Notes under the pieces: generated by a model
What the model was told of the DNA's origin: nothing
Databases searched by the model: none
Seen by the model: the letters and a program-made list of their open reading frames with translations, nothing else
Assembly (NCBI GenBank): GCA_016200585.1
Contig: JACQEN010000195.1
Location: 3,939-67,938, forward strand
Reading direction: 5' to 3'
Source of the DNA: Deltaproteobacteria bacterium
GTDB lineage: Bacteria; Desulfobacterota; Binatia; HRBIN30
Length of the DNA stretch: 64,000 bases
Shown: piece after piece, positions 14,586 through 51,562 of the stretch
Layout of the letters: each line of letters begins with the position of its first letter
Numbering within the stretch: position 1 is the stretch's first letter
Made by a program: the position numbers and the translations under genes

Positions 14586-15857
14586 ATGAACGATTTCATG
14601 CTCGACGAACAGGGAAGAGCGCTACAGGACAAGGCGCGCGAGTTCGTCAAGAACGATGTCGACTCGGAATATCTACGGCGGATGGACCGCGACGAAATTC
14701 GCTTCCCGCGCCAGCTTTACGAGGGGTACGCGAAGCATCATCTGCTCGGCCTGCGCTTTCCGATCGCCTACGGCGGCCAGGCGACGAGTTGGGTCAACGA
14801 ATGCGCCAGCATGGGGGAAGTCGGCGCTCTTGGGATGGCGGCGGGTTGTGCCTACGTGATGCCGTCGATCGTCGGCGAGGCGCTGAATGCCTTCGGAAGT
14901 GAAGAGCAGAAGCAGCGCTATCTGAAGCCGATGCTGGCCGGCAAGCTGGTGTCGGCGGAAGCGCTGACCGAGCCGCGCGGCGGTTCGGATTTCTTCGGCG
15001 CCAGCAGCCGCGCCGAGGACAAGGGCGACCATTTCGTCGTCCGTGGCATGAAGCGTTTCATCGTCGGGGCCGAAGGGGCCGACTATTTCCTCGCCTACGT
15101 CCGCACCAACCTCGCCGACGACGCGCCGGCGCAGCAGCGTATCAGCGCCATGATCATCGACCGCGGCCCCGGCGTCGAGGTGAAGTATCTCTACGGGTTG
15201 ATGGGGACGCGCGGCGGCGGCACTGGACGCGTCGTCTTCCGCGACGTCAAGGTTCCCAAGGCAAATCTCATCGGACCGTTGCACGGCGGCGCCATGGTCT
15301 TTCACACCATGATGATTCCCGAGCGTCTGTGCAGCGCCGCGCCGTGTACGGGAATGATGCAGGCGTGCATCGACGTTGCCATGAGCTACGCCGACCGTCG
15401 CAAGGCGTTCGGCGCGCCGATCCGCAAATTCCAGGCGGTGAGCTTCATGATCGCCAAGGCTCAAATGCTACTCGATGCCAGCCAGGCGATGATCTACCAG
15501 GCGGCGCGTGCCGCCGACTGCGGTGCTCCGAACGTGAGGCGCATCGTTTCGGAGACCAAGAAGTTCGTCACCGAAGCGGCGTGGGATGTCGCCAATCTCG
15601 CCATGCAGATCACCGGCGGCATCGGTTACACCGACGTCTACCCGATCGAACGGGCGGTGCGCGACACGCGTCTGGCGCAGATCTGGACCGGCACCAACGA
15701 AGTCATGAGCGCTATGATCCAGCACGATCTCTATCAAGAGTTTCGCGCCAGCCGCGGTCGCTACCGCGACTTCGAAGGCGACGCCATGCACGCCGACGAC
15801 AGCGAGAAGATCTTCGACGACGACGATATGTGGAAGGTCTACGACCTGCAGAAGTGA
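14586..15857 (+). CDS. Acyl-CoA dehydrogenase
   Basis: ALTEPRGGSDF and GGIGYTDVYPIERAVRDTRLAQIWTGTNEVM. Length is 423 aa. A GGAGG-type RBS (gggaggaag) lies upstream of ATG 14586. Confidence 0.9.
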   Translation: MNDFMLDEQGRALQDKAREFVKNDVDSEYLRRMDRDEIRFPRQLYEGYAKHHLLGLRFPIAYGGQATSWVNECASMGEVGALGMAAGCAYVMPSIVGEALNAFGSEEQKQRYLKPMLAGKLVSAEALTEPRGGSDFFGASSRAEDKGDHFVVRGMKRFIVGAEGADYFLAYVRTNLADDAPAQQRISAMIIDRGPGVEVKYLYGLMGTRGGGTGRVVFRDVKVPKANLIGPLHGGAMVFHTMMIPERLCSAAPCTGMMQACIDVAMSYADRRKAFGAPIRKFQAVSFMIAKAQMLLDASQAMIYQAARAADCGAPNVRRIVSETKKFVTEAAWDVANLAMQITGGIGYTDVYPIERAVRDTRLAQIWTGTNEVMSAMIQHDLYQEFRASRGRYRDFEGDAMHADDSEKIFDDDDMWKVYDLQK

Positions 15858-17090: not shown

Positions 17091-17382
17091 GTACTTCAAA
17101 CTATCATGATCAAATGAAGCCTCAAGGCCTGTTGGTGGCGTTATGAATGCGCCTGTCTTGTCCCGCACCACATAACACGCGGGTTCTGTCAGTCGTTCAC
17201 AACCCGAGGCGGACGTCCTCCCGCGAGCCCTCGGTTCCTTGGGTGCCGGGTATTCGGTTGTCGCTGTGCCACGCCGCTTGCATCATGATCCGCGTCACGC
17301 GGATTCCTGATCCAGATTCTCCGCAGCCTTCCGACCGTCCGGTAGGTAGACGGTGCGATCGCCAAATTCGTGCACTCTCGGT

Positions 17383-17391
17383 GGGAAGGAG
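17383..17391 (+). promoter_or_regulatory. Shine-Dalgarno (gggaaggag) for the molybdoenzyme beta subunit
   Basis: Lies 7 nt upstream of ATG 17399. Confidence 0.6.
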
Positions 17392-17398
17392 CAACGAC

Positions 17399-18436
17399 AT
17401 GGGAACGGTGGTGCCTTCAAAACGCCAACTGGCTTGGGCGTTTGATCTGAACAAGTGCATCGGTTGTCAAACTTGCTCCGTCGCTTGCAAGGTGCTGTGG
17501 CCGGGTGACGATCCGGGCACGGAGCAGATGTGGTGGATGACCGTCAACACCCAACCGGGGCGTGGTACGCCGCGCGACTGGGAGTCGATGGGTGGTGGCT
17601 ACGACGCCGACGACAAGCTGCAGCTCGGGCGCATCGCCACGGAAGAAGAAATCGGCGGCGGCTGGAACTTCAATTACGATGAAGTTCTGCACAGCGGCCG
17701 CGGCCGGGATGTGCACCTGGAAAAAGTCTCCGGCAGCAAGAGCTGGGGAATGAACTGGGATGAGGACGAAGGCGCCGGTTCGTTTCCCAACGCCTATTTT
17801 TTCTACCTGCCGCGCCTGTGCAACCACTGCACGCAACCCGCCTGCCTCGAAGCGTGTCCCAACGACGCGATCTTCAAACACGCCGATACCGGCCTGGTGC
17901 TGCGCGACGAGGAAAAATGCAAGGGCGCGCAAATGTGCCGCCGCGCTTGCCCGTACAAGAAGATCTACTTCAACAAGATGCGCAACGTCAGCCAACACTG
18001 CATCGGCTGCTTTCCGCGCATCGAGCAGGGCGTCGCACCGGCGTGCGTCCGCCAGTGTCCTGGACGTGCGGCGTTCGTCGGGTTCCTCGACGACGCTGGC
18101 AGCATCGTTCACAAGCTCGTCAGCAAGTGGAAGGTGGCGTTGCCGCTGCACCCGGAGTTCGGTACTCACCCCAACGTCTACTACGTGCCGCCTCTGTCGC
18201 CGGCGCCGCTGCACGAGGACGGCAGCTTCAACGCGGCGGGGCAGCGCATACCGCCCGACTATCTCGAGAAGCTCTTCGGGAGCGATGTCCATGGCGCGTT
18301 GGACGTCCTGCGCTCCGAGCTCGACAAGAAGCGGCGTGGGCAGGACTCCGACGTGATGGACGCACTCATTCTGTACCGCTGGAAGGACGCGCTCGGTCAC
18401 CTGACTCGCGACCCAGCCGAGATCGTGTGGAAGTGA
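17399..18436 (+). CDS. Four-cluster Fe-S (beta) subunit of a type-II DMSO-reductase-family molybdoenzyme (NarH/EbdB/DdhB/SerB-like)
   Basis: ORF track 17147..18436. The real start is MGTVVPSKRQLAWAFDLNKCIGCQTCSVACKVLW at 17399. Cys groups are CIGCQTCSVAC, CNHCTQPACLEACP, CKGAQMCRRACPY and CIGCFPRIEQGVAPACVRQCP. At about 345 aa it matches the short (non-NarH) beta subunits. Confidence 0.85.
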   Translation: MGTVVPSKRQLAWAFDLNKCIGCQTCSVACKVLWPGDDPGTEQMWWMTVNTQPGRGTPRDWESMGGGYDADDKLQLGRIATEEEIGGGWNFNYDEVLHSGRGRDVHLEKVSGSKSWGMNWDEDEGAGSFPNAYFFYLPRLCNHCTQPACLEACPNDAIFKHADTGLVLRDEEKCKGAQMCRRACPYKKIYFNKMRNVSQHCIGCFPRIEQGVAPACVRQCPGRAAFVGFLDDAGSIVHKLVSKWKVALPLHPEFGTHPNVYYVPPLSPAPLHEDGSFNAAGQRIPPDYLEKLFGSDVHGALDVLRSELDKKRRGQDSDVMDALILYRWKDALGHLTRDPAEIVWK

Positions 18437-18440
18437 GCCG

Positions 18441-18446
18441 AGGAGG
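18441..18446 (+). promoter_or_regulatory. Shine-Dalgarno (aggagg) for the molybdoenzyme alpha subunit
   Basis: Lies 7 nt upstream of ATG 18454 and just after the beta-subunit stop at 18436. Confidence 0.7.
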
Positions 18447-18453
18447 AATCGCC

Positions 18454-21222
18454 ATGGCACAGATCAAAGGGCAATGGGCTGACAGCTACCGGCAAAAGTG
18501 GACGTGGGATCGAGTGACCTGGGGAAGTCACTCCGTCGACTGTTACCCCGGCGGTTGTCCGTGGCGCGTCTACACCAAGGACGGCAAGGTCATCCGCGAG
18601 GAGCAAGCCGGAGTGTTCACGCCGATCGAGGCCGGCGTGCCCGACATGAACCCCATGGGTTGCCAGAAGGGCGCTTGCTGGAGCGAGCTGCTCGACGCGC
18701 CGGATCGCATCACCGAGCCGCTCAAGCGGGTCGGCAAACGCGGCGAGGGTAAGTTCGAGCCGGTCTCGTGGGACGTGGCGCTGAACGACATCGCCGACGC
18801 CATGCTCGATGCGATCAAGGATCAAGGCTCAGAGTCGATCATTACGCTGATGACCCCCGAGTTCGCCGCCGCCGGTGCCCGCTCCTTCAGCGACGCTTTG
18901 GGAACGCCGACGACCGACGGCAACGCCGAGTTCCAAGACTTTAGCCCCGGCTTTCATCTGACCTTCGGGTTGTACAACCCGGTGGCGTCGATGGACGATT
19001 GGTTCCTGGCCGAGCTGACGCTCATCTGGCACGCCAACCCGGTGTACACCAACATCCACTGGTACCACTACGTTGCCGAGTCGCGCTACAACGGCGGTGA
19101 GGTCGTCACCATCTCTCCCGACTACAGCCCGTCGGCGATCCATGCGGATTACCACGTTCCGGTTCGCATCGGCACCGATGCCGCGTTCTCCCTCGCCATG
19201 TGCAAGACGATCATCGACGCCGGCCTCTACAACAAGAAATTCGTCCAGGAGCAGACCGATCTACCGCTGCTCGTGCGCAAAGACAGCGGCCGCTTTCTGC
19301 GCGGCAACGATCTTGCCGACGACGATCGTGAAGATCAGTTCTTCTGGGCCGACGAAAATGGCGGCGTCGTGACGCCGGCGCCACGACACACGTTGGCGGC
19401 GGCAGGAGTGAGCCCGGCGCTCGAAGGCACGTACCAGGTCATGCTCAAGGACGGGAACACCGTCGAGGTGGAGCCGGTCTTCCAGCGGTTGCAGCGTCAG
19501 CTGGAGAACTTCACCCCGGAGAAGGCGAGCAAGATCTGTGAGGTTCACCCGGACAACATCCGCGAGCTGGCCCGCAAAGTCGCGACGCGCAAGACCAAGA
19601 TCTTCATCGGTTGGAATTCCGGGAAGTACTACCACGGCGACTTGATGGAGCGTTCGATGGCGCTGCTGCTGGCGCTCACCGGCAATTGGGGGAAGAAGGG
19701 GACCGGAACACGTTCGTGGGCGGCCGGCGGGTGGGACGGGATGGCGTTCATGGCGGACAAGGGGATGCCGGGACAAGACGCCGCTCGGATGGCGCACCAA
19801 GCGCGCACTCTCATGCGGCGCCTGATGACGATGGACGATCCGACGCGCACCTTGGAGCAGATCACCAACCACGTGTCGGCGATGAATCCCGAGCTCGGCG
19901 GTTTTGGCGCCATGATCCCACCGGCGTTCCTGTGGTACTACCAGTACGGCTACAAGGAACGCTGGAACAACCGCGAGAACAACGACCCGTCGATGAAACG
20001 CAGCTTCGACGAGTACGTCAACGAGGCGATCGACAAAGGATGGTTCGGTTCCTACTGCTCGGAGGCATATCGCGACGTCGAGCCGCGCGTTCTCTTCGAG
20101 TCGGGCGGCAACATGCTGCGGCGGCAGCGCGGTGGTCAGAAGTTGTTGCTCGACAAGCTGTGGCCGAAGCTCAAGATGATCGTCTCGGTGGACTTTCGTC
20201 TCAACACCACGGGCATGTACTCCGACTACGTTTTGCCCGCCGCCCAGCACTACGAAAAGCTCGGGCAGAGCATGCCGTCGGTGCATCACCTCAACTGGGT
20301 GCTCACCGACCGTGCCGTACCACCGCCGGGCAATGCGCTGAGCGAGCACGACATCGGCATCAAGATCCTCGAAGCGATTGAGCGCCGTGCCGCGGCGCGC
20401 GGTATGACCGACTTCACCGATCGCAAAGGGATGACGCGCGCGCTCACCGGTCTGGTGGCCAAGGCCACGCTCAACGGTGCGATGCGTGACGAAGAGAAGT
20501 TCTACGACGAGGCGGTGCGCGACAACGCCGTCTACGGCATCCTGCCGGAGGGTACGTCGCTCGCAACGTTGCGGGAGAAGGGTTACGTGCGCTGGACCGG
20601 CTGGGGCATGGCGGGCCATGGTGAATCGCAGGCGTCGACGATCAAGGCGGATGAAGTCCACAACCCGCTGCGCTGGCACACCGAAGACAAGCTGCCGTAC
20701 GCCACACTCGTGCGCCGGGCACAATTCTACATCGACCACGAATGGTTTCTCGAAGCCGGCGAGGAGCTACCGACGCACAAAGAGACGCCGCCGCACGGCG
20801 GTCGCAATCGGCGCTTTCAGATGACCAGCGGGCACAATCGTTGGAGCATTCATTCGATGAACATGACCAACCGCAACCTGCTCAACACCCATCGCGGCGA
20901 ACCCTTCGTGTTCATCAACGACAAGGATGCGGTGAGTCTCGACATCATCAACGGCGAGCACGTGAAGCTCGTCAGCGACGTCGGCGAAACCATCCTTCAA
21001 GCCAAGATCACACCGGCGTGCCGGCCGGGACAAGTGATCGTGTACAACGGCTTCGAGCCGTTCATGCACAAAAACTGGTATGGCCAAGCCGATATCGAAC
21101 CCGGCCACGTCAAGTGGCTCGGCCTCGCCGCCGGCTACGGACATCTCACCTACCGTCCGACGTCGTGGCAACCGATCCCGGCCGACCGGGCGGTGCGTGT
21201 TGATGTGCAGAAAGTTGCGTAG
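18454..21222 (+). CDS. Molybdopterin (bis-MGD) catalytic alpha subunit, type-II DMSO-reductase family, no Tat signal
   Basis: ORF track 17818..21222. The real start is MAQIKGQWADSYRQKWTWDRVTWGSHSVDCYPGGCPWRVYTKDGKVIREEQ, which is NarG-like N-terminal logic with an FS0-type His/Cys group. Length is 923 aa. There is no twin-arginine leader. Confidence 0.85.
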   Translation: MAQIKGQWADSYRQKWTWDRVTWGSHSVDCYPGGCPWRVYTKDGKVIREEQAGVFTPIEAGVPDMNPMGCQKGACWSELLDAPDRITEPLKRVGKRGEGKFEPVSWDVALNDIADAMLDAIKDQGSESIITLMTPEFAAAGARSFSDALGTPTTDGNAEFQDFSPGFHLTFGLYNPVASMDDWFLAELTLIWHANPVYTNIHWYHYVAESRYNGGEVVTISPDYSPSAIHADYHVPVRIGTDAAFSLAMCKTIIDAGLYNKKFVQEQTDLPLLVRKDSGRFLRGNDLADDDREDQFFWADENGGVVTPAPRHTLAAAGVSPALEGTYQVMLKDGNTVEVEPVFQRLQRQLENFTPEKASKICEVHPDNIRELARKVATRKTKIFIGWNSGKYYHGDLMERSMALLLALTGNWGKKGTGTRSWAAGGWDGMAFMADKGMPGQDAARMAHQARTLMRRLMTMDDPTRTLEQITNHVSAMNPELGGFGAMIPPAFLWYYQYGYKERWNNRENNDPSMKRSFDEYVNEAIDKGWFGSYCSEAYRDVEPRVLFESGGNMLRRQRGGQKLLLDKLWPKLKMIVSVDFRLNTTGMYSDYVLPAAQHYEKLGQSMPSVHHLNWVLTDRAVPPPGNALSEHDIGIKILEAIERRAAARGMTDFTDRKGMTRALTGLVAKATLNGAMRDEEKFYDEAVRDNAVYGILPEGTSLATLREKGYVRWTGWGMAGHGESQASTIKADEVHNPLRWHTEDKLPYATLVRRAQFYIDHEWFLEAGEELPTHKETPPHGGRNRRFQMTSGHNRWSIHSMNMTNRNLLNTHRGEPFVFINDKDAVSLDIINGEHVKLVSDVGETILQAKITPACRPGQVIVYNGFEPFMHKNWYGQADIEPGHVKWLGLAAGYGHLTYRPTSWQPIPADRAVRVDVQKVA

Positions 21223-21345: not shown

Positions 21346-22164
21346 TCACTCGCTTCCCCGGTTGAACCGTGGCCTTCTTTTCTCGAGGAACGCCATCATC
21401 CCCTCCCGCTGGTCCGGCGTCCCCATTGTCGCGAGGACCGCGCGGCGTTCCTCGGCAATGCCCTCCGCGAGCGGCTTGTCACCGGCGCCGACGATGCATC
21501 GGAGCATTCCGGCGACAGCGATTCTCGGCATATCCGCCAACTCGCGCGCCAGCGCCTGGGCGCGCTCAAACAACTCCGCGATCGGCCAGACTTCATTGAC
21601 TAGACCGATCCGCAACGCTTCGGGACCCGAGATCTTCTTCGCGCGCAGGATCATATCGAGGGCATGATCCCGTCCGACGCAACGCGTGAGGCGCGCGCTC
21701 CCGCCCCACGCGGGGACGGTGCCGAGATCCAGCTCGGGAAGCCCTATCTTGCAGCCTTCCGCCGCCGCGAGGCGGAAGTGACAGGCGAGCGGCAGCTCGA
21801 GACCGCCGCCGAGGCAATAGCCATACAACACGGCGACCACTGGCTTCGGGAGGTTTTCGATCGCGTCGAGGACACGCAGGCGTTGGTCGAACAGGGCCTC
21901 TATGCTTCCCTTTCGGTTGACTCCCTCCGGGAGCTGTTTCAGGTCCATTCCGACCGAGAAGTTCTCGGTTCCCGCGCCGCGAATAACAATGGCAAGCACG
22001 CCGGGGTCGTCCGCGACGCGTGCGACCGCGGCTTCGAGCGCGTCCATGAAGTCGAGGCTCATGCGGTTCCGCGGGTAATCGTTGATTACCAACGTCTCGA
22101 CCGGTCCGTTGTGTTCGATGAGCAACGGAGCCTCGGTCGCATTTCCGTCTGCGGACATCGGCAT
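21346..22164 (-). CDS. Enoyl-CoA hydratase/isomerase (crotonase) family protein
   Basis: ORF track 21346..22221 (GTG start). ATG 22164 (MPMSADG) is more likely. Crotonase motifs are GAGTENFSVGMDL and YGYCLGGGLELPLACHFRL. Confidence 0.85.
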   Translation of the reverse strand: MPMSADGNATEAPLLIEHNGPVETLVINDYPRNRMSLDFMDALEAAVARVADDPGVLAIVIRGAGTENFSVGMDLKQLPEGVNRKGSIEALFDQRLRVLDAIENLPKPVVAVLYGYCLGGGLELPLACHFRLAAAEGCKIGLPELDLGTVPAWGGSARLTRCVGRDHALDMILRAKKISGPEALRIGLVNEVWPIAELFERAQALARELADMPRIAVAGMLRCIVGAGDKPLAEGIAEERRAVLATMGTPDQREGMMAFLEKRRPRFNRGSE

Positions 22165-22433
22165 ACGCTTTACTACACGGTCGGCGTCGATAGCGCCAAC
22201 CCGGCCCGGCCAGGCGCGCACTGACGACTACCTGTGGACCTTTCCCAAGTAAGAGGACCGGCAGGCGTCACCGGCGAGAATTGACGATCCACCGAGCCCT
22301 CGAGTCTCCTTCTGTGGCAAGCCGTCGCAGCGCACGACCGGGCAAACGGCGCGTGATGGCGTTCTGATAGTTGCGCAACAGCGCTTCGATCCACTCGTCG
22401 CTCATAGGTGTGCCCCGATTTCGCTATCGTCGT

Positions 22434-23249
22434 TCACGCGACGCGACCTCCTGGGATGGGCGGTCCGCCGGCGTAGACGCTGTGTACGTGGATCGTTCCG
22501 GTCTTGCCGGCTTGCTCCCATCGGACTTTGGCTTGGTACGAGATTGCCTCGGCGGTCAGAACGTTGGCGGCGACGCGCCCGCCGATCACCGGGGTGGTCG
22601 GCTGTGGGCAGTGACCCAGATGCTGATCCAAGCAAACGGCCAACTGCCACTCCCCTTTCGGTTGCAGCGACAGCGCCGGGACGACGAACGGGTAGCCGTC
22701 GGTGCCGATCCAGGACATCACTTTGATCGCCGCCATGCGTCCGAACTCGCGGCGTGCTGCTGCTGGCACGCGTGCTTCAGCCCCGTCGTGCACCGCGTCG
22801 CGCAGCGCCGACAAGCGAGCCGAGGCGAAATCTCTGGCTACTTGCAGGCGCGTTAGCGAGAACGTGGCTTCGACGGTTCGTGCGCGCAGCAGGCCGGCGT
22901 TGCGAATGCCGGTGTAGGCATTGTAGCGCAGCATCTTGGCGCTGTTCTGACGTTCGACGTACGAACCGGAGCGCTGAAACTCCAGAAAGTCGGCGGTCAG
23001 AATCCAACCGTGGAGCTCAGGCGTCATCACCAGGATGCCGACACGCGGATCGGACTCGAGGTTCCTGACGCTCTTGCGCAACAGGAAATTACCGAAGAAT
23101 AGGAGGTCGCTTTCATCGCTGTCGGGCATCAGCGAGAGGCAAGGGACGACGTTCGGTTCCCATGCCGGTCCACGGGTGGCGAGGAATTTCGGTGTACGCT
23201 CGCCGCGTAGTGCCTCGAGGAGTCCTGGCGTGTCTGCGAGTAGGGACAT
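22434..23249 (-). CDS. Tandem PNPOx-like (FMN-binding split-barrel) domain protein, putative
   Basis: The two halves each have the PNPOx-like pattern (NVVPCLSLMP..LLFFGNFLLRKSVRNLESDPRVGILV and DGYPFVVPALSLQP..). This is a weak by-eye assignment. The gene sits 36 nt downstream of the GRE activase. Confidence 0.45.
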   Translation of the reverse strand: MSLLADTPGLLEALRGERTPKFLATRGPAWEPNVVPCLSLMPDSDESDLLFFGNFLLRKSVRNLESDPRVGILVMTPELHGWILTADFLEFQRSGSYVERQNSAKMLRYNAYTGIRNAGLLRARTVEATFSLTRLQVARDFASARLSALRDAVHDGAEARVPAAARREFGRMAAIKVMSWIGTDGYPFVVPALSLQPKGEWQLAVCLDQHLGHCPQPTTPVIGGRVAANVLTAEAISYQAKVRWEQAGKTGTIHVHSVYAGGPPIPGGRVA

Positions 23250-23284
23250 GGCTCGACCTTACGCTGACGGGCTCGTTGCTCTTC

Positions 23285-24265
23285 TCAACACGTCGCCCCC
23301 GACCATTGCGCTTGCGGAACGAGCTCGACCGCGACGCGCCATAGCGCTTCCATGTCACCGCGAGTGAGCAGCGCCGCGTCCTCGAGGGCGTAGGGCCGAT
23401 CGAGACGATGATACTTGGGGCGCCCGAGGTTGGTGTAGGCCAGCAGATCCCAGCGTTGTACGCTCGGCAAACAATTGCGGATGAAGTCGGCGATGGCGCG
23501 GATGTTGTCTGCATTGGCCGTGTAGCCGGGGACGAGCGGCGTACGAATCCACAGCGGCGTACCGTGCTCGGCCAGCAAACGAGCATTGTCGAGGATCAAT
23601 TCGTTGGACACGCCGGTGGCGGCTTTGCTTGCGGCTGCGTCCATGACCTTGAGGTCGTAGAGCACCAGGTCGATCCACGGCAGCACGCGACGCAAACGGT
23701 CGCTGGCGACGGCGCCGCAGGTGTCGAGGGCCACCTGCAGACCGGCGGCTTTGCACAGCGGCAGGACCTCACTCAGAAAGTCGATTTGCGTGAGAGGTTC
23801 GCCGCCGCTGAAGGTGACGCCCCCTCCCGAGGTTTCGTAGAACACTTGATCCTTGAGCAACTCGTCGAGCAGCTCTTCGGCTGTCCACTGCTTGCCGATG
23901 AGCTCGAACGCTGCCGAGGGGCAAGCACGAACGCATTTGCCGCACAGGGTGCAGCGAGCGCGGTCGATCTGCATGCCGCTCTGCGACAACGCCAGCGCCT
24001 GTTCCGGGCAGATGGAGAGACACTCGCGGGCCGCAATACAGCGCACGTCGTACCACATCAGATCGGGGGCAACGCGCATGCCCTCGGGATTGTGACACCA
24101 GGCGCAGCGCAACGGACAGCCTTTGAGGAATACCGTGGTCCGAATGCCCGGGCCGTCTTCGGTGCTGAACTGTTGGATATTGAAAGTGGTGCCGGTGACG
24201 CTGAGGTTGCGGAGCAGCGGCGCGCTTGCAGCCGCGGTTGCTGCGGCGGTTGAACTAGAGTCCAT
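23285..24265 (-). CDS. Glycyl-radical enzyme activating enzyme (radical SAM, with a ferredoxin-like two-cluster insert)
   Basis: The radical-SAM motif is GCPLRCAWCHNPEG, preceded by FSTEDGPGIRTTVFLKG. Extra clusters are CIAARECLSICP and CTLCGKCVRACP. The start MDSSST is at 24265 and overlaps the GRE stop by 11 nt; the longer ORF-track start is an extension into the GRE. Confidence 0.9.
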   Translation of the reverse strand: MDSSSTAAATAAASAPLLRNLSVTGTTFNIQQFSTEDGPGIRTTVFLKGCPLRCAWCHNPEGMRVAPDLMWYDVRCIAARECLSICPEQALALSQSGMQIDRARCTLCGKCVRACPSAAFELIGKQWTAEELLDELLKDQVFYETSGGGVTFSGGEPLTQIDFLSEVLPLCKAAGLQVALDTCGAVASDRLRRVLPWIDLVLYDLKVMDAAASKAATGVSNELILDNARLLAEHGTPLWIRTPLVPGYTANADNIRAIADFIRNCLPSVQRWDLLAYTNLGRPKYHRLDRPYALEDAALLTRGDMEALWRVAVELVPQAQWSGATC

Positions 24266-26693
24266 GTGACTCGCGGGCGATGATCTCGTCTTGAATCTCT
24301 TTGCCCAAGCCGGCGAAGTAGGCGTTGTAGCCGGTGACGCGGACCAGAAGATTGCGGTACTCGTCGGGATGTTTCTGGGCGGCGCGCAGCGTCGCCGCAT
24401 CGATGACGTTGATCTGCAAACACGTGCCGCCGACCTTGTCGTAGGCGCGCAGCAACCCTTTGAGCTTGGCACGCTGCTCGGGGTTGCGCAGCAGTGATGG
24501 GCTGAAGGACATCGTATGGCTGGCGCCGTTGGGAGCGCTGGCGAGATGGAGGTGTCCGACGCTCTTGATGACCGCCGTCGGGCCCTTGCGATCGGCGCCG
24601 TTCACCGGGCACACGGCGTTCGACAGGTACTGGCCGCGCTTGCGGCCGTCGGGTGTTGCGGCGGTCGTCGGCGCGTAGGCAATCCAGTAGTTCCACGAAA
24701 GATAGCCGCCGCGGTAGCGTTTGCCGGTGGGTGACGTGTGCTGAAACACCGCTTCGGTCCAGCAGCGACTGATGTCGCGCGCCAAGGCGTCGACGGCGGC
24801 GTCATCATTTCCGTACTTCGGGGCCTTGTGCAGCAACGTTTGTCGCAGTGGCTCGTGGCCGTCGAAGTTGGCACGCAGCGCGTCGAGCAGCTGCGGCATC
24901 TCGATCTGGTGTTCTTCGAATACCAACCTCTTCACCGCCGCGAGGCTGTCCGCCGCCGTTGCCAGCGCGATCCCTTCGACGGTGAGGAAGTTGAATCGGG
25001 CGCCACCGGCATTGCTGTCGCGGCCGCTCTGCAGGCAGCCATCGACGACGGCGCTCATGTAGGGGACGGGCTCCCAACGGCCGCGCCCGGCGTCGGCCAT
25101 GTCGTTGACGCGGATGATCCAGTCGGCGAGATGCAAGAGCTGGGCGCGGAAGGCGTGCCACAGGTCATCGAACGATTCGAAGTCGGACGCCAAACCGGTT
25201 TGCGGTCCGATCTGCTTGCCCGTCGCCGGATCGCGGCCGTCGTTCAACGCCAGCTCGATGGCTTTGGCGAGATTGAGGTTGACGTCGACCGTTCCCGAGC
25301 GGTCACAGCCGGCCAGGGTATTCTCGAGGCAGCCGACGGGGGCATAGTCCCACAGTTGCTCTTCCGGCAAACCCTGCCATCGCAGGCCGGCCATCGATGC
25401 TTCATCGAAGTTGAGCAAGAACGGCGAGCCCTGGGCTCGCGCCAGCGAGTCGACAATACGGTCGAGCAGCGGCTCCGGTGTCTTGGCGTGCAGGCGAATG
25501 TTGGGTTTCGGCTCGAGCAAGTTGATCTCGTCGATGACGTCGAGCATCAGATGGGTCAGCTCGTTTGACGCGTCGGAACCGTCGGCTTTGATGCCGCCGA
25601 GGGTGATCAGCTGTCCGAACGATGCGTTGATCCCCTGGTTCGTTCCGGTCCAGCCCTGATAGTCATAGACGTAGTTGTGCTTGATCCACCAACACTCCAG
25701 CCATTCTTTGGCGGTGTCGCGGGTCAATCGTCCGGCGGCGATGTCGGCTTCGTAGTAGGGCAGAAGGTACTGGTCGACGCGTCCCGGCGACACGCCCGGT
25801 CCGGGATAGCTCTCCGCCGCCATCAACAACATGTGCGTCGTCCACAGCGCCTGCAGCGCTTCGGGGAATGTTTCCGGCGGATTCCAGGGGACCTTACCGG
25901 CGATGCGAGCGATCTCCTGCAGCTCGGCAATCCGTGTCGGATCGTTTCCCTGCCCCGACAGCCGTCGCGCCTCGGCGGCGTTGCGGCGCATGTAGTCGCG
26001 CACGCCGTCGGCGCAAATCATCACCGCGCGGGCGAGGTCGCGTTGCGCTGCCGTCGCGTCCGGCGCTTCGGCGATGTCTCGTGCTTCATAGTAGAGCCCA
26101 CTCCAGCCGACGCGCAGCGCTTTGCGGTAGTCGGGCACCAGGTGGCCCGGAACCGCGGCACAGTTGCCGACGCCGCTGTCGTTGAGCTGGTGCCATTCGG
26201 CGAGGAAATCTCGTTCGGCATGGTCGCGCTCGCGTGCTTCACGCTTGTTCAGGCAGCGCGACAGTGCGGTGTTTAAGTGCGAACCGACGATCAATTCACC
26301 CTCGAGAATCTCGACCGGCAAGTACTGGCGCAGGACTTCACGGAAAAAGAGGGCTCGACGGACGACGAGTGGCTCTCGCCAAAAGTGATGCGGCAGTTCT
26401 ACCCGGGTCGCTGCGGCCAGCAGGTACGAACGGAACCCCGGCAGGAAAAGCGCGGTTTCCGGAACATTGGTCCACGACCACATCGAGTACACCGTGTCCC
26501 ATGCCGTGCCGGTGGTGAAGGCGCGCACCTCGTTGGTGTAGGTGCGGTCGTAGAACGACCAATACTGATCGCGCAAATGCTGGATGCGTGGCGATAGGGT
26601 CGATGCGGCTGCCCATAGATCGCCCGGGGAGAGCCCCCCCCGCGACTCGCTGACCGCCATTGTTCCGCCCCCTGGGCCGTACGAATCGAGCAT
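24255..26693 (-). CDS. Glycyl radical enzyme (PFL-family, non-PFL C-x-E type), substrate unknown
   Basis: The glycine-radical motif is LLVRVTGYNAYFAG, with the Gly codon at 24330..24332. The thiyl loop is APVGCLENT, with the Cys codon at 25329..25331, 333 residues upstream of the Gly. The start is uncertain (26693 MLDSYG or 26660 MAVSE); the ORF track extends to 26801. Confidence 0.9.
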   Translation of the reverse strand: MLDSYGPGGGTMAVSESRGGLSPGDLWAAASTLSPRIQHLRDQYWSFYDRTYTNEVRAFTTGTAWDTVYSMWSWTNVPETALFLPGFRSYLLAAATRVELPHHFWREPLVVRRALFFREVLRQYLPVEILEGELIVGSHLNTALSRCLNKREARERDHAERDFLAEWHQLNDSGVGNCAAVPGHLVPDYRKALRVGWSGLYYEARDIAEAPDATAAQRDLARAVMICADGVRDYMRRNAAEARRLSGQGNDPTRIAELQEIARIAGKVPWNPPETFPEALQALWTTHMLLMAAESYPGPGVSPGRVDQYLLPYYEADIAAGRLTRDTAKEWLECWWIKHNYVYDYQGWTGTNQGINASFGQLITLGGIKADGSDASNELTHLMLDVIDEINLLEPKPNIRLHAKTPEPLLDRIVDSLARAQGSPFLLNFDEASMAGLRWQGLPEEQLWDYAPVGCLENTLAGCDRSGTVDVNLNLAKAIELALNDGRDPATGKQIGPQTGLASDFESFDDLWHAFRAQLLHLADWIIRVNDMADAGRGRWEPVPYMSAVVDGCLQSGRDSNAGGARFNFLTVEGIALATAADSLAAVKRLVFEEHQIEMPQLLDALRANFDGHEPLRQTLLHKAPKYGNDDAAVDALARDISRCWTEAVFQHTSPTGKRYRGGYLSWNYWIAYAPTTAATPDGRKRGQYLSNAVCPVNGADRKGPTAVIKSVGHLHLASAPNGASHTMSFSPSLLRNPEQRAKLKGLLRAYDKVGGTCLQINVIDAATLRAAQKHPDEYRNLLVRVTGYNAYFAGLGKEIQDEIIARESHGL

Positions 26694-49207: not shown

Positions 49208-51562
49208 CTATGCGATCACGGCCGCGGCACGCCACGCCCCCAATTCGTCGTCCGAAACATCGAGGAGCCGCTTCAATACGTCGTCGGTGTGCTCGCCGAT
49301 CGTCGGTTCCAGGGCGCACGGTGGGCGCTGCCCTTGGTTGCGCCGCCATTCCAATTGAGGGTCTCTGCCGCAAAGATCGACGGCGGTTGCGACGACGCCT
49401 GCAGGAACTGCGGCTCGTTGTAGAGTGTTCATGACATCCGTCGGGTTTCGTTGTCGTGTCCACGCCTCGACATTTTTCGCCAAGGCGACGCGATGGCGTG
49501 CGCGGCTGGCAACCGATGCGAAGCGTTGGTCCCCTGTCCACTCTGGATGGCCGAGCGCTTCACAGAGGCGTCGCCAATCGGCCTCGTCGCGGATATCGAT
49601 GGCGCACCAGCGGTCGGCCGCCGGATCGTCGTCGTTTTCCCCCAAACAGCGAAATACACCGGAGAAGCCGTCGTTCCGCAACGACGGGTGATCAGACGGG
49701 CTTCGGCAGCCCGGCGCTTCCTCGGTTTGCGCTGGGGGGTTGAGAGCGACCATGATCTCGGCGCCGTGCAGGCTCACCAGGTTTTCGAATTGCGACAGGT
49801 CGACGAGCTGCCCCTCGCCGGTGGCTTGCCGGTGGCGAAGAGCGAGAAGGACGGCAAAGGCGCCACTCCAACCCGCCAACATGTCGGAGTAGGCGAAGCC
49901 CCAGCCAACCGGTGTGCCGGACGAGTCATGCATCAGAGAATTGAAGCCGGCTGCCGCTTGAAGGTTGGGGCCGAAGGCGACCGCGTCGCGGAGCGGGCCG
50001 TCGAGGCCGTAGGCCGACATCTTCACGCAAATGATCTCAGGGCAGATGCGGTTGAGCTGAGTGTAGTCGAACCCCCAATTCGACATCACACGCGGACTGA
50101 AGTTGTCGATGACCACGTCGGCCACGGCGACAAGCCGGCGCAGAAGCTCGCGGCCAGCGGCGTGATCGAGATCGATGGCGACACTCTGCTTGCCACGGTT
50201 CAAACCGCCGAGCCGGCTGCGCTGTCGCTGCCCGGCGGGTGCCGACTTGGGGTGCTCGATCTTGATCACTTCCGCTCCGAAGTCGGCCAACCATCTGGTG
50301 GCGACCGGGCCGGCGACGTTCCAAGTGAGATCGACGATTCGCAGACCCTTCAATCCATTGCTTGCGATCCCGGCTCTGGGATTGCTTTCTGCACGCGGCG
50401 GCTGCCCGGCGGTTGCGTTCAAGAGCTCTCGGCTGTGCTCGCCCAAAAGCGGTGGCCGGTGAACGATGCGCCAAGGGCTGCGACTAAACCGGTACGGCGC
50501 GCCGGGATATCTCAGTGCGCTACCGAGATCGTCGTGAAATACCGGTACGAAGAATTGGCGGGCCAGCAGTTGCGGATCTCCTACCAGGTGTCGGAGCGGG
50601 CGAACCGCGGCTACGGGGAGACGGCGCAGTTGCGCTGCCGCAACCAGCTCGTCAACGCGCTGCTTGCTCGTCCAAGCTTCCAACCGGTCGAACAATTCGT
50701 TGGCGTGCGCACGCCGGTAGTCCGGACTGCGCCACCGCGGGTGCTTCAGATCCGTGCCGGGATCAAGCTCCGATACCCATTCCGACCAGGTTGTCCAATC
50801 GCCAAGGCTGCTCAGCATGAGATGGCCGTCGGCTGCGCGTGCGACGCGAAAATCACGTGACCAGTGCAGGCTTCCCTGCCTTTGTGCCACGACACCTTCG
50901 CGTCGGAACAGCGTTGTCACGTGCTCGACGCTGGCAGCGACGCACTCTTGGATCGATACGTCGATGAATCGGTCCGAGGTGCCCACGTCTGCTCCGAGCA
51001 GTCGCGCCAGCGCCGCAATCGCCGCTTGCAGCCCGGCGCAGTGGAACGCTTGCGGTCCAGGACCCCGCAACGGCGGTTCGTTGGGATTTCCGTTCAACCC
51101 GGTCATCCCACCCAATGCCTGGCACACCAACTCGCTGCCGTGAAAATTTCGATAAGGGCCGCTGCGGCCGAACGGCGTGATGGAGATCCACACGAGGTCG
51201 CGATTGCTCTTCCGCACATCCGCGTAGTCGAGGTTGCGATCGGCGAGATGACCCGGTGGAAATGTTTCGATGACGAGATCACTCGAGCCCATCAGCTCGC
51301 GGAGCTGTCGGCGTGCGGTGCTGTTGTCGAGGTCGAGCACGACGCTGCGTTTGTTGGTGTTGTCGTGGGCGAACATCAGCGATTGTTCGGTCGTCGATCG
51401 ATTGCTCCAAAACGGACCTTGCCGGCGCAGCTCCGACCCGGCGGGTGGCTCAATCAGAATGACGTCGGCGCCCATATCGGCGAAGAGCTTACCGCAGTAG
51501 GCACCGGAGGCGTCGCTCAGATCGATTACACGCAAACCGGCTAGGGCGCTGGGGAGCGACAT
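49208..51562 (-). CDS. Fused tandem family-III (CaiB/BaiF/BbsEF-type) CoA-transferase, 784 aa
   Basis: There are two complete N-terminal signatures: LAGLRVIDLSDASGAYCGKLFADMGADVILIEPPAG and LKGLRIVDLTWNVAGPVATRWLADFGAEVIKIEHPKS. The start MSLPSALAG is at 51562; the ORF track extends to 51664. Confidence 0.85.
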   Translation of the reverse strand: MSLPSALAGLRVIDLSDASGAYCGKLFADMGADVILIEPPAGSELRRQGPFWSNRSTTEQSLMFAHDNTNKRSVVLDLDNSTARRQLRELMGSSDLVIETFPPGHLADRNLDYADVRKSNRDLVWISITPFGRSGPYRNFHGSELVCQALGGMTGLNGNPNEPPLRGPGPQAFHCAGLQAAIAALARLLGADVGTSDRFIDVSIQECVAASVEHVTTLFRREGVVAQRQGSLHWSRDFRVARAADGHLMLSSLGDWTTWSEWVSELDPGTDLKHPRWRSPDYRRAHANELFDRLEAWTSKQRVDELVAAAQLRRLPVAAVRPLRHLVGDPQLLARQFFVPVFHDDLGSALRYPGAPYRFSRSPWRIVHRPPLLGEHSRELLNATAGQPPRAESNPRAGIASNGLKGLRIVDLTWNVAGPVATRWLADFGAEVIKIEHPKSAPAGQRQRSRLGGLNRGKQSVAIDLDHAAGRELLRRLVAVADVVIDNFSPRVMSNWGFDYTQLNRICPEIICVKMSAYGLDGPLRDAVAFGPNLQAAAGFNSLMHDSSGTPVGWGFAYSDMLAGWSGAFAVLLALRHRQATGEGQLVDLSQFENLVSLHGAEIMVALNPPAQTEEAPGCRSPSDHPSLRNDGFSGVFRCLGENDDDPAADRWCAIDIRDEADWRRLCEALGHPEWTGDQRFASVASRARHRVALAKNVEAWTRQRNPTDVMNTLQRAAVPAGVVATAVDLCGRDPQLEWRRNQGQRPPCALEPTIGEHTDDVLKRLLDVSDDELGAWRAAAVIA

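Follow-up and report, generated by a model that had tools for sequence, protein, structure and literature searches.

A glycyl-radical enzyme, its activase and a tandem split beta-barrel protein form a conserved three-gene module, probably that of a dehydratase-type eliminase, in a Binatia genome

Which reaction is catalysed by the divergent glycyl-radical enzyme (GRE) encoded in a 64,000-nucleotide (nt) stretch of a Deltaproteobacteria bacterium genome (class Binatia; contig JACQEN010000195.1, positions 3,939 to 67,938; hereafter the window), and which of the genes around it take part? The original prediction had seen here a four-gene operon of GRE, activase, flavin-fold protein and enoyl-coenzyme A (CoA) hydratase, had pointed to enzymes of bbs/ass-type pathways elsewhere in the window, and had left the substrate open. 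The best overall explanation of our results, which we consider probable, is a horizontally acquired three-gene module consisting of a dehydratase-type 1,2-eliminase, its activase and a dedicated partner, a tandem split beta-barrel protein. Judged by its sequence, the window GRE is a genuine and presumably oxygen-sensitive radical enzyme of a large, very conserved and uncharacterised family.

The minus strand carries four consecutive open reading frames (ORFs) between positions 21346 and 26801. Their features, and the GRE codons on which the argument depends, are:

24255..26660, minus strand: GRE, 801 residues; ORF open to 26801; Pfam PFL-like domain 461.6 bits and Gly_radical domain 94.4 bits (cut-off 22.2)
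26151..26660, minus strand: clade-specific N-terminal region of the GRE, residues 1–170, with the motif LSPRI..LRDQYW...YTNEVRAFTTGTAWD...WSWTNVPE
26142..26144, minus strand: codon of His173, invariant in 49 family members and aligned to Protein Data Bank (PDB) chains
25323..25331, minus strand: Cys444-Leu-Glu446, the thiyl-radical cysteine (TGC, 25329..25331) and the glutamate of the C-x-E motif; the VGCLENT loop is invariant
25284..25286, minus strand: codon of Asp459, invariant; coincides with Asp447 of glycerol dehydratase (GD) or lies one residue away
24330..24332, minus strand: codon (GGC) of Gly777, the radical-bearing glycine of RVTGYNAYF; the motif is invariant in the family
23285..24265, minus strand: activase, a radical SAM protein of 326 residues with Pfam Radical_SAM and ferredoxin-type 4Fe-4S domains
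22434..23249, minus strand: partner, a tandem split beta-barrel (PNPOx-like) protein of 271 residues with a weak PNPOx_N match
22257..22275, minus strand: terminator-like hairpin between the partner and hydratase genes; weak evidence, since the region has no more of these sites than expected from shuffled sequence
21346..22164, minus strand: enoyl-CoA hydratase (crotonase), ECH_1 156 bits; alternative start at 22221

The GRE most likely starts at the ATG at 26660 (MAVSESRG) and not at 26693, in view of the ribosome-binding stretch GGGGGCGG and of the homologues, which begin there; of the extent originally given (24255..26693), the stop therefore stands but the start does not. Otherwise the positions and motifs of the original prediction were all reproduced, namely the glycine and cysteine codons, the spacing of 333 residues between Cys444 and Gly777, the 11-nt overlap of the activase ATG (24265) with the GRE stop (24255), and the Trp-rich stretch. 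The activase carries the cluster motif CPLRCAWC (24095..24118) and two ferredoxin-type cluster motifs; the sole NCBIfam model that it passes is the generic TIGR02494 (337.7 bits, cut-off 174.35), and it lies under the cut-off of all the substrate-specific activase equivalogs in that collection. Pfam, NCBIfam and the motifs thus bear out the reading as a divergent GRE of the C-x-E type that has its own activase. The partner follows the activase after 35 nt, and no ORF for a Cys-rich small subunit is found within the module or in the 300 nt upstream of the GRE; together with the GRE/activase overlap, this upholds the earlier remark that a BssB/BssC-like subunit is missing.

The GRE itself falls under every curated NCBIfam cut-off. 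It scores 489.5 bits with the PFL2-3 subfamily model TIGR01774 (cut-off 678.2), 458 with that of HypD (NF043068, 1100), 392 with that of CutC (TIGR04394, 1050), and 408 and 386 with those of the C-S lyases and sulfo-diol dehydratases IslA, IseG, HpsG and HpfG (NF048011 and NF048009, 1000), and it is likewise below the cut-offs of the sulfopropanediol enzyme, IAD, HPAD and PFL models. Its identity to all solved GREs is 25–30%. A database clustered at 90% identity holds more than 120 clusters at 72–83% identity to the window GRE, about 800 residues long and publicly named formate C-acetyltransferase, PFL/glycerol dehydratase family or hydroxyproline dehydratase. From 172 relatives, taken at one genome per species, the best 80 loci were kept. 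Family identity is 56–83% across Chloroflexota, deltaproteobacterial lineages, Actinomycetota and Bathyarchaeia, and the 80 loci cover at least seven phyla: the majority are from Anaerolineae and other Chloroflexota, and the remainder from deltaproteobacterial/Thermodesulfobacteriota metagenome-assembled genomes (MAGs), Actinomycetota (Geothermincolales, Anoxymicrobiaceae), Dehalococcoidia, Acidobacteriota and Phycisphaerae. The full triad is also present on a Bathyarchaeia contig. Mean column identity in an alignment of 49 family members is 73%.

An exhaustive search of representatives at 50% identity recovered sister clades at 866, 701, 697 and 489 bits, aligned over the N-terminus too; all other GREs scored about 440 bits or less and aligned only from about residue 170. 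In a quick maximum-likelihood tree, the split between generic GRE representatives and the group that bears this N-terminus is fully supported. Placement among the curated GRE clades, which had been proposed as a check, was based on the curated cut-offs, on scores against PDB chains and on a tree without labels; it reaches no curated cut-off and instead yields a separate, N-terminus-bearing clade, in agreement with the decision to leave the substrate open. Two observations concern other GREs met in these searches. In the generic representative P0131, Ala replaces the radical glycine (RVAAYIALF), and this protein may be among the aminoacyl radical enzymes described in 2024; in two genomes of the phylum the family or sister GRE has as its immediate neighbour a further GRE of a different type, scoring about 495 bits (G054:C6:36169-40634 and G115:C2:184873-191759).

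The atypical N-terminus noticed originally is real. It comprises the Trp-rich stretch (from 26588) and the EILEGELIVG region (from 26312) and is covered neither by the Pfam PFL-like profile, whose match starts only at profile position 127, nor by the solved GREs, which align to the window GRE only from about residue 170. The region is conserved in the family and in the sister clades P0121–P0123, P0127, P0169 and P0233, and in the AlphaFold model of the GRE (pLDDT 86.1) it is mostly confident, at 74–98 past the first 10 residues. Since the tree separates the group that bears it with full support, it is a character of the clade. The original prediction had supposed that its reading would fall if the insert were common in the clade of this enzyme or if that clade had a known substrate; the insert is indeed common there, but the clade is not one of known substrate. 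The idea that this region docks the partner is weakened, because P0169 and P0233 share its motif and are without a partner.

Conservation of the neighbourhood was assessed by tblastn of the window proteins against the 80 loci and by independent de novo clustering of ORFs of at least 90 residues, and the two agree. The activase is found in 67–69 of the 80 loci and the partner in 59–61, in every case downstream of the GRE and in the same orientation; most of the misses are at contig ends. The enoyl-CoA hydratase is found in only 6–7 loci, and as the copies are 28–36% identical the hydratases of different loci are not orthologues. An acyl-CoA dehydrogenase is present in 12–13 loci; the molybdoenzyme of the window, its Fe-S subunit, the fused CoA-transferase and the other window genes are present in none. 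The closest relative (locus L001, 83% identity) is without a hydratase at that place, and in the window the hydratase lies 213–270 nt from the partner with the weak hairpin between them. From these counts, the hydratase spacing and hairpin, and the arrangement in the closest relative, the conserved unit is GRE, activase and partner; the hydratase, CoA-transferase and molybdoenzyme are incidental neighbours. The four-gene operon proposed at the outset therefore does not hold as regards its hydratase, whereas the assignment of the flavin-fold gene to the GRE is confirmed by the locus counts and by co-occurrence in the phylum (below), and the predicted neighbourhood is conserved for GRE, activase and partner but not for the hydratase or CoA-transferase.

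Pfam counts over 138 operon-like neighbours reveal nothing beyond nine matches. Acyl-CoA dehydrogenase heads the list (9 of 138), followed by UPF0047, C69 peptidase-like proteins, adenosine deaminase, thiamine pyrophosphate (TPP) enzymes and others; no alcohol or aldehyde dehydrogenase or microcompartment gene is conserved near the GRE in the 80 loci. Among individual loci, acetolactate-synthase/Xsc-like TPP enzymes follow the GRE in the archaeal relative P0121 (L086, 4321..6993, on a contig with TFIIB) and the triad in a Dehalococcoidia locus (L054, 15562..17262), and C69 peptidase-like genes recur in Anaerolineae operons and near the same archaeal GRE.

How specific is the partner to this GRE? 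A profile search of 201 genomes sampled from the phylum of the window matched the partner in 24, and all 24 carry either the family GRE (at least 1354 bits) or that of its sister clade (about 910–1000 bits), usually on the same contig as the partner and within 2 kb. One GRE carrier has no partner match, its GRE being at a contig end, and the partner is absent from all 37 of these genomes that hold only other GRE types. Copy numbers follow the same pattern: G150 has two copies of the GRE and two of the partner, and many triad carriers have two to five further GREs and no further partner. The association extends to sister clades. P0122 (46% GRE identity) keeps the order GRE, activase, partner, with a partner homologue at an hhalign probability of 99.7%; in P0123 (43%; L085, 1..9594) two separate genes upstream of the GRE, of 203 and 150 residues, take the place of the fused partner. 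P0127 (L083/L084, 260..3669) has a partner homologue at 99.3% beside a GRE paralogue, 36–38% identical to that of the window, which has Phe for Cys444 (SGFHETT, confirmed by BLASTP) and keeps the glycine; this locus has no activase within 6 kb, and the partner gene overlaps the GRE stop codon. That a Cys-less paralogue without an activase keeps an overlapping partner indicates that the partner tracks the GRE body rather than the activase. It is most likely that the partner works specifically with this GRE, as a subunit or in a next or auxiliary redox step; a role as a general reductant for activases is unlikely. After the partner, the P0127 locus continues with a crotonase, a SnoaL-like protein and an ABC uptake system. 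At L088–L090 (P0169 and P0233), Firmicutes GRE-like proteins with Spo0A neighbours are without the catalytic Cys or a recognisable glycine-radical domain, and an activase-like radical SAM gene and an iron alcohol dehydrogenase still follow the GRE-like gene.

The window copy of the partner scores 24.6 bits with PNPOx_N, below the cut-off of 28.1, while all 58 partner family members match this profile, the best with an E-value of 1.5e-14. Its AlphaFold model (pLDDT 92.9) consists of two split beta-barrels in one chain, a pseudo-dimer of barrels of the flavin mononucleotide (FMN)-binding type. Searched one barrel at a time, Foldseek returns the heme protein HupZ, Swol_0183, the FMN-binding protein of Desulfovibrio vulgaris and the F420 reductase MSMEG_3380 at a probability of 1.00. 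Invariant positions of the family include the motif RYNAY along with several Lys and Arg. The partner most likely binds FMN and, less likely, heme. F420 was also considered; CofD is present in only 8 of the 201 phylum genomes and missing from all 24 other triad carriers searched, so that F420 is unlikely to be a general cofactor of the partner. The genome of the window does have cofD (G000:C32:3244-4152), as do all five class-mates sampled, and only two of the other 195 phylum genomes.

What chemistry might the GRE perform? Foldseek of its model gives GD (1R8W) as the best fold match, with a TM score of 0.82, and GD, propanediol dehydratase (PD), CutC and HypD all score about 0.80–0.84. Residue equivalences were read from profile alignments to solved structures against conservation in the 49-member alignment. 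His173 corresponds to His164 of GD and His160 of HypD (CutC has an Asp there), and Cys444 and Glu446 to Cys433 and Glu435 of GD; HMMER aligns Asp459 with an Asp of the PD 9RCO. The glycerol contacts of GD (1R9D), His281, Ser282, Tyr339 and Tyr640, correspond to Pro288, Gly289, Gly349 and Leu654, all conserved in the family; the first two lie in a clade-specific ExYPGPG loop, and Leu654 in an invariant stretch (Tyr649, Arg650 and Gly652 to Trp659). Asp278 of HypD, which binds the substrate amine, is replaced by Pro288, and Asp216 of CutC by His173. Arg454 and Arg650 are invariant in the family and not in generic GREs. As for the active-site check that had been suggested, the sequence alignments give catalytic residues that match those of GD but pocket residues that are replaced. 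The substrate is predicted to be none of those of known GREs, and the replaced pocket together with Arg454 and Arg650 suggests a larger, probably anionic, hydroxylated compound. P0121, P0122 and P0123 share nearly the whole active-site signature, so that the chemistry is probably common to them. At the P0123 locus lie a FGGY sugar/glycerol kinase, GlpA/GlpB-like dehydrogenases, a C-terminal fragment of a glycerol-3-phosphate dehydrogenase and a DUF4125 protein, a context that hints, as a lead only, at glycerol-linked substrates.

According to a 2026 review of the GRE superfamily, the glutamate of GD takes a proton from the hydroxyl of the substrate, His164 donates one to the hydroxyl that leaves, and the C-x-E motif is common to all 1,2-eliminases and isomerases. 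Taken with the His, Cys and Glu equivalences, these roles indicate that the GRE has the catalytic equipment of a 1,2-eliminase of the dehydratase type. By homology, the activase would use S-adenosylmethionine and its reduced [4Fe-4S] cluster to abstract a hydrogen atom from Gly777. The resulting glycyl radical would generate a thiyl radical on Cys444, which would abstract hydrogen at a hydroxyl-bearing carbon; Glu446 would deprotonate the hydroxyl and His173, probably aided by Asp459, would protonate the neighbouring leaving group, which would then be eliminated. Recovery of hydrogen from Cys444 by the product radical would complete a 1,2-elimination of the GD/PD type or a related isomerisation.

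The genome to which the module belongs is a 5.6-Mb MAG, 85% complete, with the window GRE as its only GRE. LigA, encoded on the same contig, shares 67% identity with that of a genome of the same order and 44–60% with those of class-mates, which indicates that the contig is correctly placed in the class. Among 41 genomes of the class, a partner of the family type occurs only in that of the window; four have the sister type, and the genomes of the same family and the same order have none. In the tree, the window GRE groups with L001 and with a partial protein labelled Albitalea sp. by NCBI, inside a clade dominated by Chloroflexota. The simplest reading of these relationships is that the module reached the genome by horizontal transfer from this clade; the base composition of the window shows no anomaly.

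Further genes of the window enter the discussion through the pathways that they might suggest:

14586..15857, plus strand: acyl-CoA dehydrogenase of a subfamily found inside a Dehalococcoidia GRE operon; possible accessory
17147..21222, plus strand: ethylbenzene-dehydrogenase-like enzyme of the type II dimethyl sulphoxide (DMSO)-reductase family, comprising the next two genes
17147..18436, plus strand: Fe-S beta subunit, EbdB model 411 bits
18430..21222, plus strand: molybdoenzyme alpha subunit, EbdA model 747 bits; TIGR03479 855 bits against a cut-off of 985
49208..51562, minus strand: fused two-domain family-III CoA-transferase, 784 residues
970..6267, minus strand: RHS/YD-repeat protein with an RHS-associated core domain, 1765 residues

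In four Dehalococcoidia loci an acyl-CoA dehydrogenase lies between the GRE and the activase, and the dehydrogenase of the window, 8.4 kb from the GRE in its 5.6-Mb genome, is the single best match of that genome to this in-operon enzyme (56% identity, 485 bits; the next 185). Its nearest model is that of the acryloyl-CoA reductase AcrC, with which it scores 232 bits, far short of the 640 required. Two further genomes, G045 and G083, also have a member of this subfamily close to the module, 1.6 kb away in one and 10 kb in the other, and a different type occurs in the Actinomycetota loci. As a specific marker of the GRE it fails, the subfamily being widespread (73 of the 201 phylum genomes, irrespective of GRE). 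The AcrC-like dehydrogenase is thus a recurrent, non-universal accessory, and the attention drawn to it by the original prediction was justified by its recurrence beside the GRE in several lineages but not as a sign particular to this GRE. Orthologues in at least six families (f16, f17, f23, f43, f61 and f64) have one in-frame stop (TGA, TAA or TAG) in each match, for example G156:C1:107534-108766, G053:C66:71368-72594 and G010:C30:23305-24528. The beta-then-alpha order of the molybdoenzyme genes is unusual; the alpha match begins at profile position 43–62 with no Tat leader apparent, no gamma or chaperone gene follows, and the pair is convergent with the hydratase gene. The best models for the CoA-transferase, all under their cut-offs, are succinate-glutarate and succinyl-CoA:mesaconate transferases for its first half and formyl-CoA transferase for its second.

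Several other accounts of the locus have to be weighed against a new eliminase with a dedicated partner. In metagenome papers, GREs of this kind are commonly read as fumarate-adding. Here that would mean an X-succinate synthase-like enzyme activating hydrocarbons, with the hydratase, acyl-CoA dehydrogenase and CoA-transferase processing the succinate adduct; the CoA-ester enzymes of the window and the adjoining ethylbenzene-dehydrogenase-like molybdoenzyme fit such a scheme, and Dong et al. (2019) proposed distant GREs of Chloroflexi, Actinobacteria, Bathyarchaeota and Asgard archaea as fumarate-adding. We consider such a role of the window GRE highly improbable. The X-succinate synthases are the most distant GREs of the PFL2 type and give the weakest matches of that type (BSS 292 and MasD 332 bits against 444–555 for eliminases), the Glu of C-x-E and the general-acid His173 are invariant, the activase scores 205 bits with the BssD-type model (cut-off 496), and the module has no gene for a small Cys-rich subunit, while known X-succinate synthases keep an alpha-beta-gamma architecture. 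With the CoA-transferase and molybdoenzyme in none of the 80 loci and the hydratase in few and not orthologous, the bbs/ass-type framing falls away. The enzyme might also be a divergent dehydratase of glycerol or 1,2-diols, or an eliminase already known (HypD or CutC, for instance), to whose catalysis the partner would be irrelevant. In favour of this, it has the His, Cys and Glu of the GD active site and probably also the Asp, 1R8W is its best fold match, and P0123, which shares the signature at 43% identity, lies beside glycerol kinase and GlpA/GlpB-like glycerol-3-phosphate dehydrogenase genes. This account is nevertheless improbable, as the GRE lies under the PFL2-3 subfamily and all equivalog cut-offs, the GD contacts have become Pro, Gly, Gly and Leu and the characteristic Asp residues of HypD and CutC are replaced, alcohol or aldehyde dehydrogenase and microcompartment genes are not conserved nearby, and the strict association with the partner is left unexplained. 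A GRE whose substrate is a CoA thioester is of similarly small probability; it could be, for instance, a 2-hydroxyacyl-CoA dehydratase that works without ATP and passes its enoyl-CoA product to the acyl-CoA dehydrogenase or hydratase. Acyl-CoA dehydrogenase is the commonest extra neighbour, being in-operon in Dehalococcoidia and directly upstream in Actinomycetota; that of the window is the specific counterpart of the in-operon enzyme, is nearest to an acryloyl-CoA reductase and has relatives near the GRE in G045 and G083; crotonases recur after the partner in three lineages; and an enlarged pocket with two Arg residues would fit a large anionic substrate. However, about 65 of the 80 loci are without a CoA enzyme nearby, at least two dehydrogenase subfamilies are involved, that of the window is common regardless of GRE, and the crotonases are not orthologous. 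We know of no GRE that abstracts hydrogen from a CoA ester.

Other accounts concern the partner. It might be a dedicated one-electron donor, a flavodoxin substitute, to the [4Fe-4S] cluster of the activase, with no role in the GRE reaction. The activase of PFL in E. coli requires flavodoxin, the fold of the partner resembles small FMN carriers such as the D. vulgaris protein, its gene is usually directly 3' of that of the activase, and no Flavodoxin_1 domain was found in the 85% complete genome of the window. The last point is uninformative, since most other triad carriers have Flavodoxin_1; the domain was matched in 153 of the 201 phylum genomes, mostly in ORFs of about 400 residues, and carries no information on a reductant role. 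This donor function is possible but unlikely: the other GRE-activase pairs of triad carriers do without a partner, whose copy number tracks this GRE family only, the P0127 partner overlaps a Cys-less GRE paralogue with no activase nearby, and the P0123 partner genes stand upstream of the GRE and apart from the activase gene. A bolder and rather doubtful proposal is that the tandem split-barrel protein is an obligate, cofactor-bearing third GRE subunit that couples thiyl chemistry to a flavin or heme redox step. If true, this would open the way to an oxidative transformation, for example, or to reductive dehydroxylation as the net reaction, and the partner beside a Cys-less, activase-less GRE would mean that GRE body and partner are a functional pair in themselves. 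To our knowledge no PFL-like GRE couples thiyl chemistry to such a step, an external reductant being known only in class III ribonucleotide reductase.

The dehydratase-type eliminase with a dedicated partner remains the probable reading, and the following observations weigh against it. Loci L003, L034 and L037 have ample flanks but no partner nearby; the archaeal relative P0121 has neither activase nor partner within 7 kb downstream; and P0169 and P0233 share the N-terminal motif without a partner. The match of the partner profile to HupZ/HutZ (E about 1e-4) would equally allow heme. The proposed eliminase mechanism is drawn from four conserved residues and similarity of fold, and the pocket positions come from sequence alignment; equating Asp459 with Asp447 of GD needs a shift of one residue, as HMMER places Val458 there against 1R8W. 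The GRE model is of low confidence at residues 338–348 and in the C-terminal glycine loop (779–801).

GREs carry out hard anaerobic chemistry, and each newly assigned clade has so far given a new pathway (choline, hydroxyproline, isethionate, anhydro-sugars). The present family is among the most conserved and widespread of the unassigned clades, in soils, peat, groundwater and sediments, and as a conserved GRE travelling almost always with an activase and a two-barrel flavin-type protein it marks an unassigned anaerobic reaction. Neither the public labels (pyruvate formate-lyase, hydroxyproline dehydratase) nor the hydrocarbon-activating proposals are supported here, and carbon-cycle inferences from such labels would be unsafe. 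No GRE has so far been described with a split-barrel protein as its constant companion: the 2026 review lists small subunits for HPAD, BSS and MASS and no flavin-type or split-barrel partner for any, and our full-text searches gave no paper tying GREs to split-barrel or PNPOx proteins, nor relevant work on Anaerolineae GREs. Understanding this partner could reveal a new way to build or regulate radical enzymes, and the family is a defined three-gene target for substrate discovery.

Compared with known systems, the partner superposes on the small split-barrel cofactor proteins HupZ/HutZ, D. vulgaris FMN-binding protein, Swol_0183 and MSMEG_3380 (about 120–150 residues) with target TM scores of 0.67–0.80, but it is only 15–19% identical to them, fuses two barrels in 271 residues so as to mimic their usual homodimer, and has RYNAY and other conserved residues specific to its own family. 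As for the GRE, the 'PflD/AssA-like' GREs of sediment metagenomes are likewise unassigned enzymes of uncultured anaerobes and archaea, and the taxon range here is like that of Dong et al. (2019). PFL2 of Archaeoglobus fulgidus (2F3O, of disputed function) has the His and C-x-E in common with it (480 bits, 29% identity) but is no closer than GD and aligns only from residue 172. The C-x-E motif is also common to HypD (6VXC), CutC (5FAU, 9F3W), IslA/IseG/HpsG (7KQ3, 5YMR, 6LON) and the isomerases HplG, YbiW and PflD (7VUA, 8ID7, 8ID0). These are of comparable similarity (381–555 bits with the family profile, TM 0.76–0.82); however, the review gives none of them a split-barrel partner, and the window GRE reaches none of their equivalog cut-offs.

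The dehydratases GD, that is DhaB1/DhaB2 of Clostridium butyricum (1R8W/1R9D), and PD (5I2A/5I2G, 9RCO) offer the fullest comparison. Identity to these is 26–28%; the first 170 or so residues of the window GRE are rebuilt, the glycerol contacts are replaced, two clade-specific Arg residues are present, and the GRE is accompanied by an obligate third gene and not by conserved diol-utilisation or microcompartment genes. What is common to them is the ten-stranded barrel (TM 0.82–0.84), the glycine loop, the Cys-x-Glu loop, the general-acid His and probably Asp447, as Asp459; the likeness extends to the activases, those of GD and of the window both having inserted ferredoxin-like clusters.

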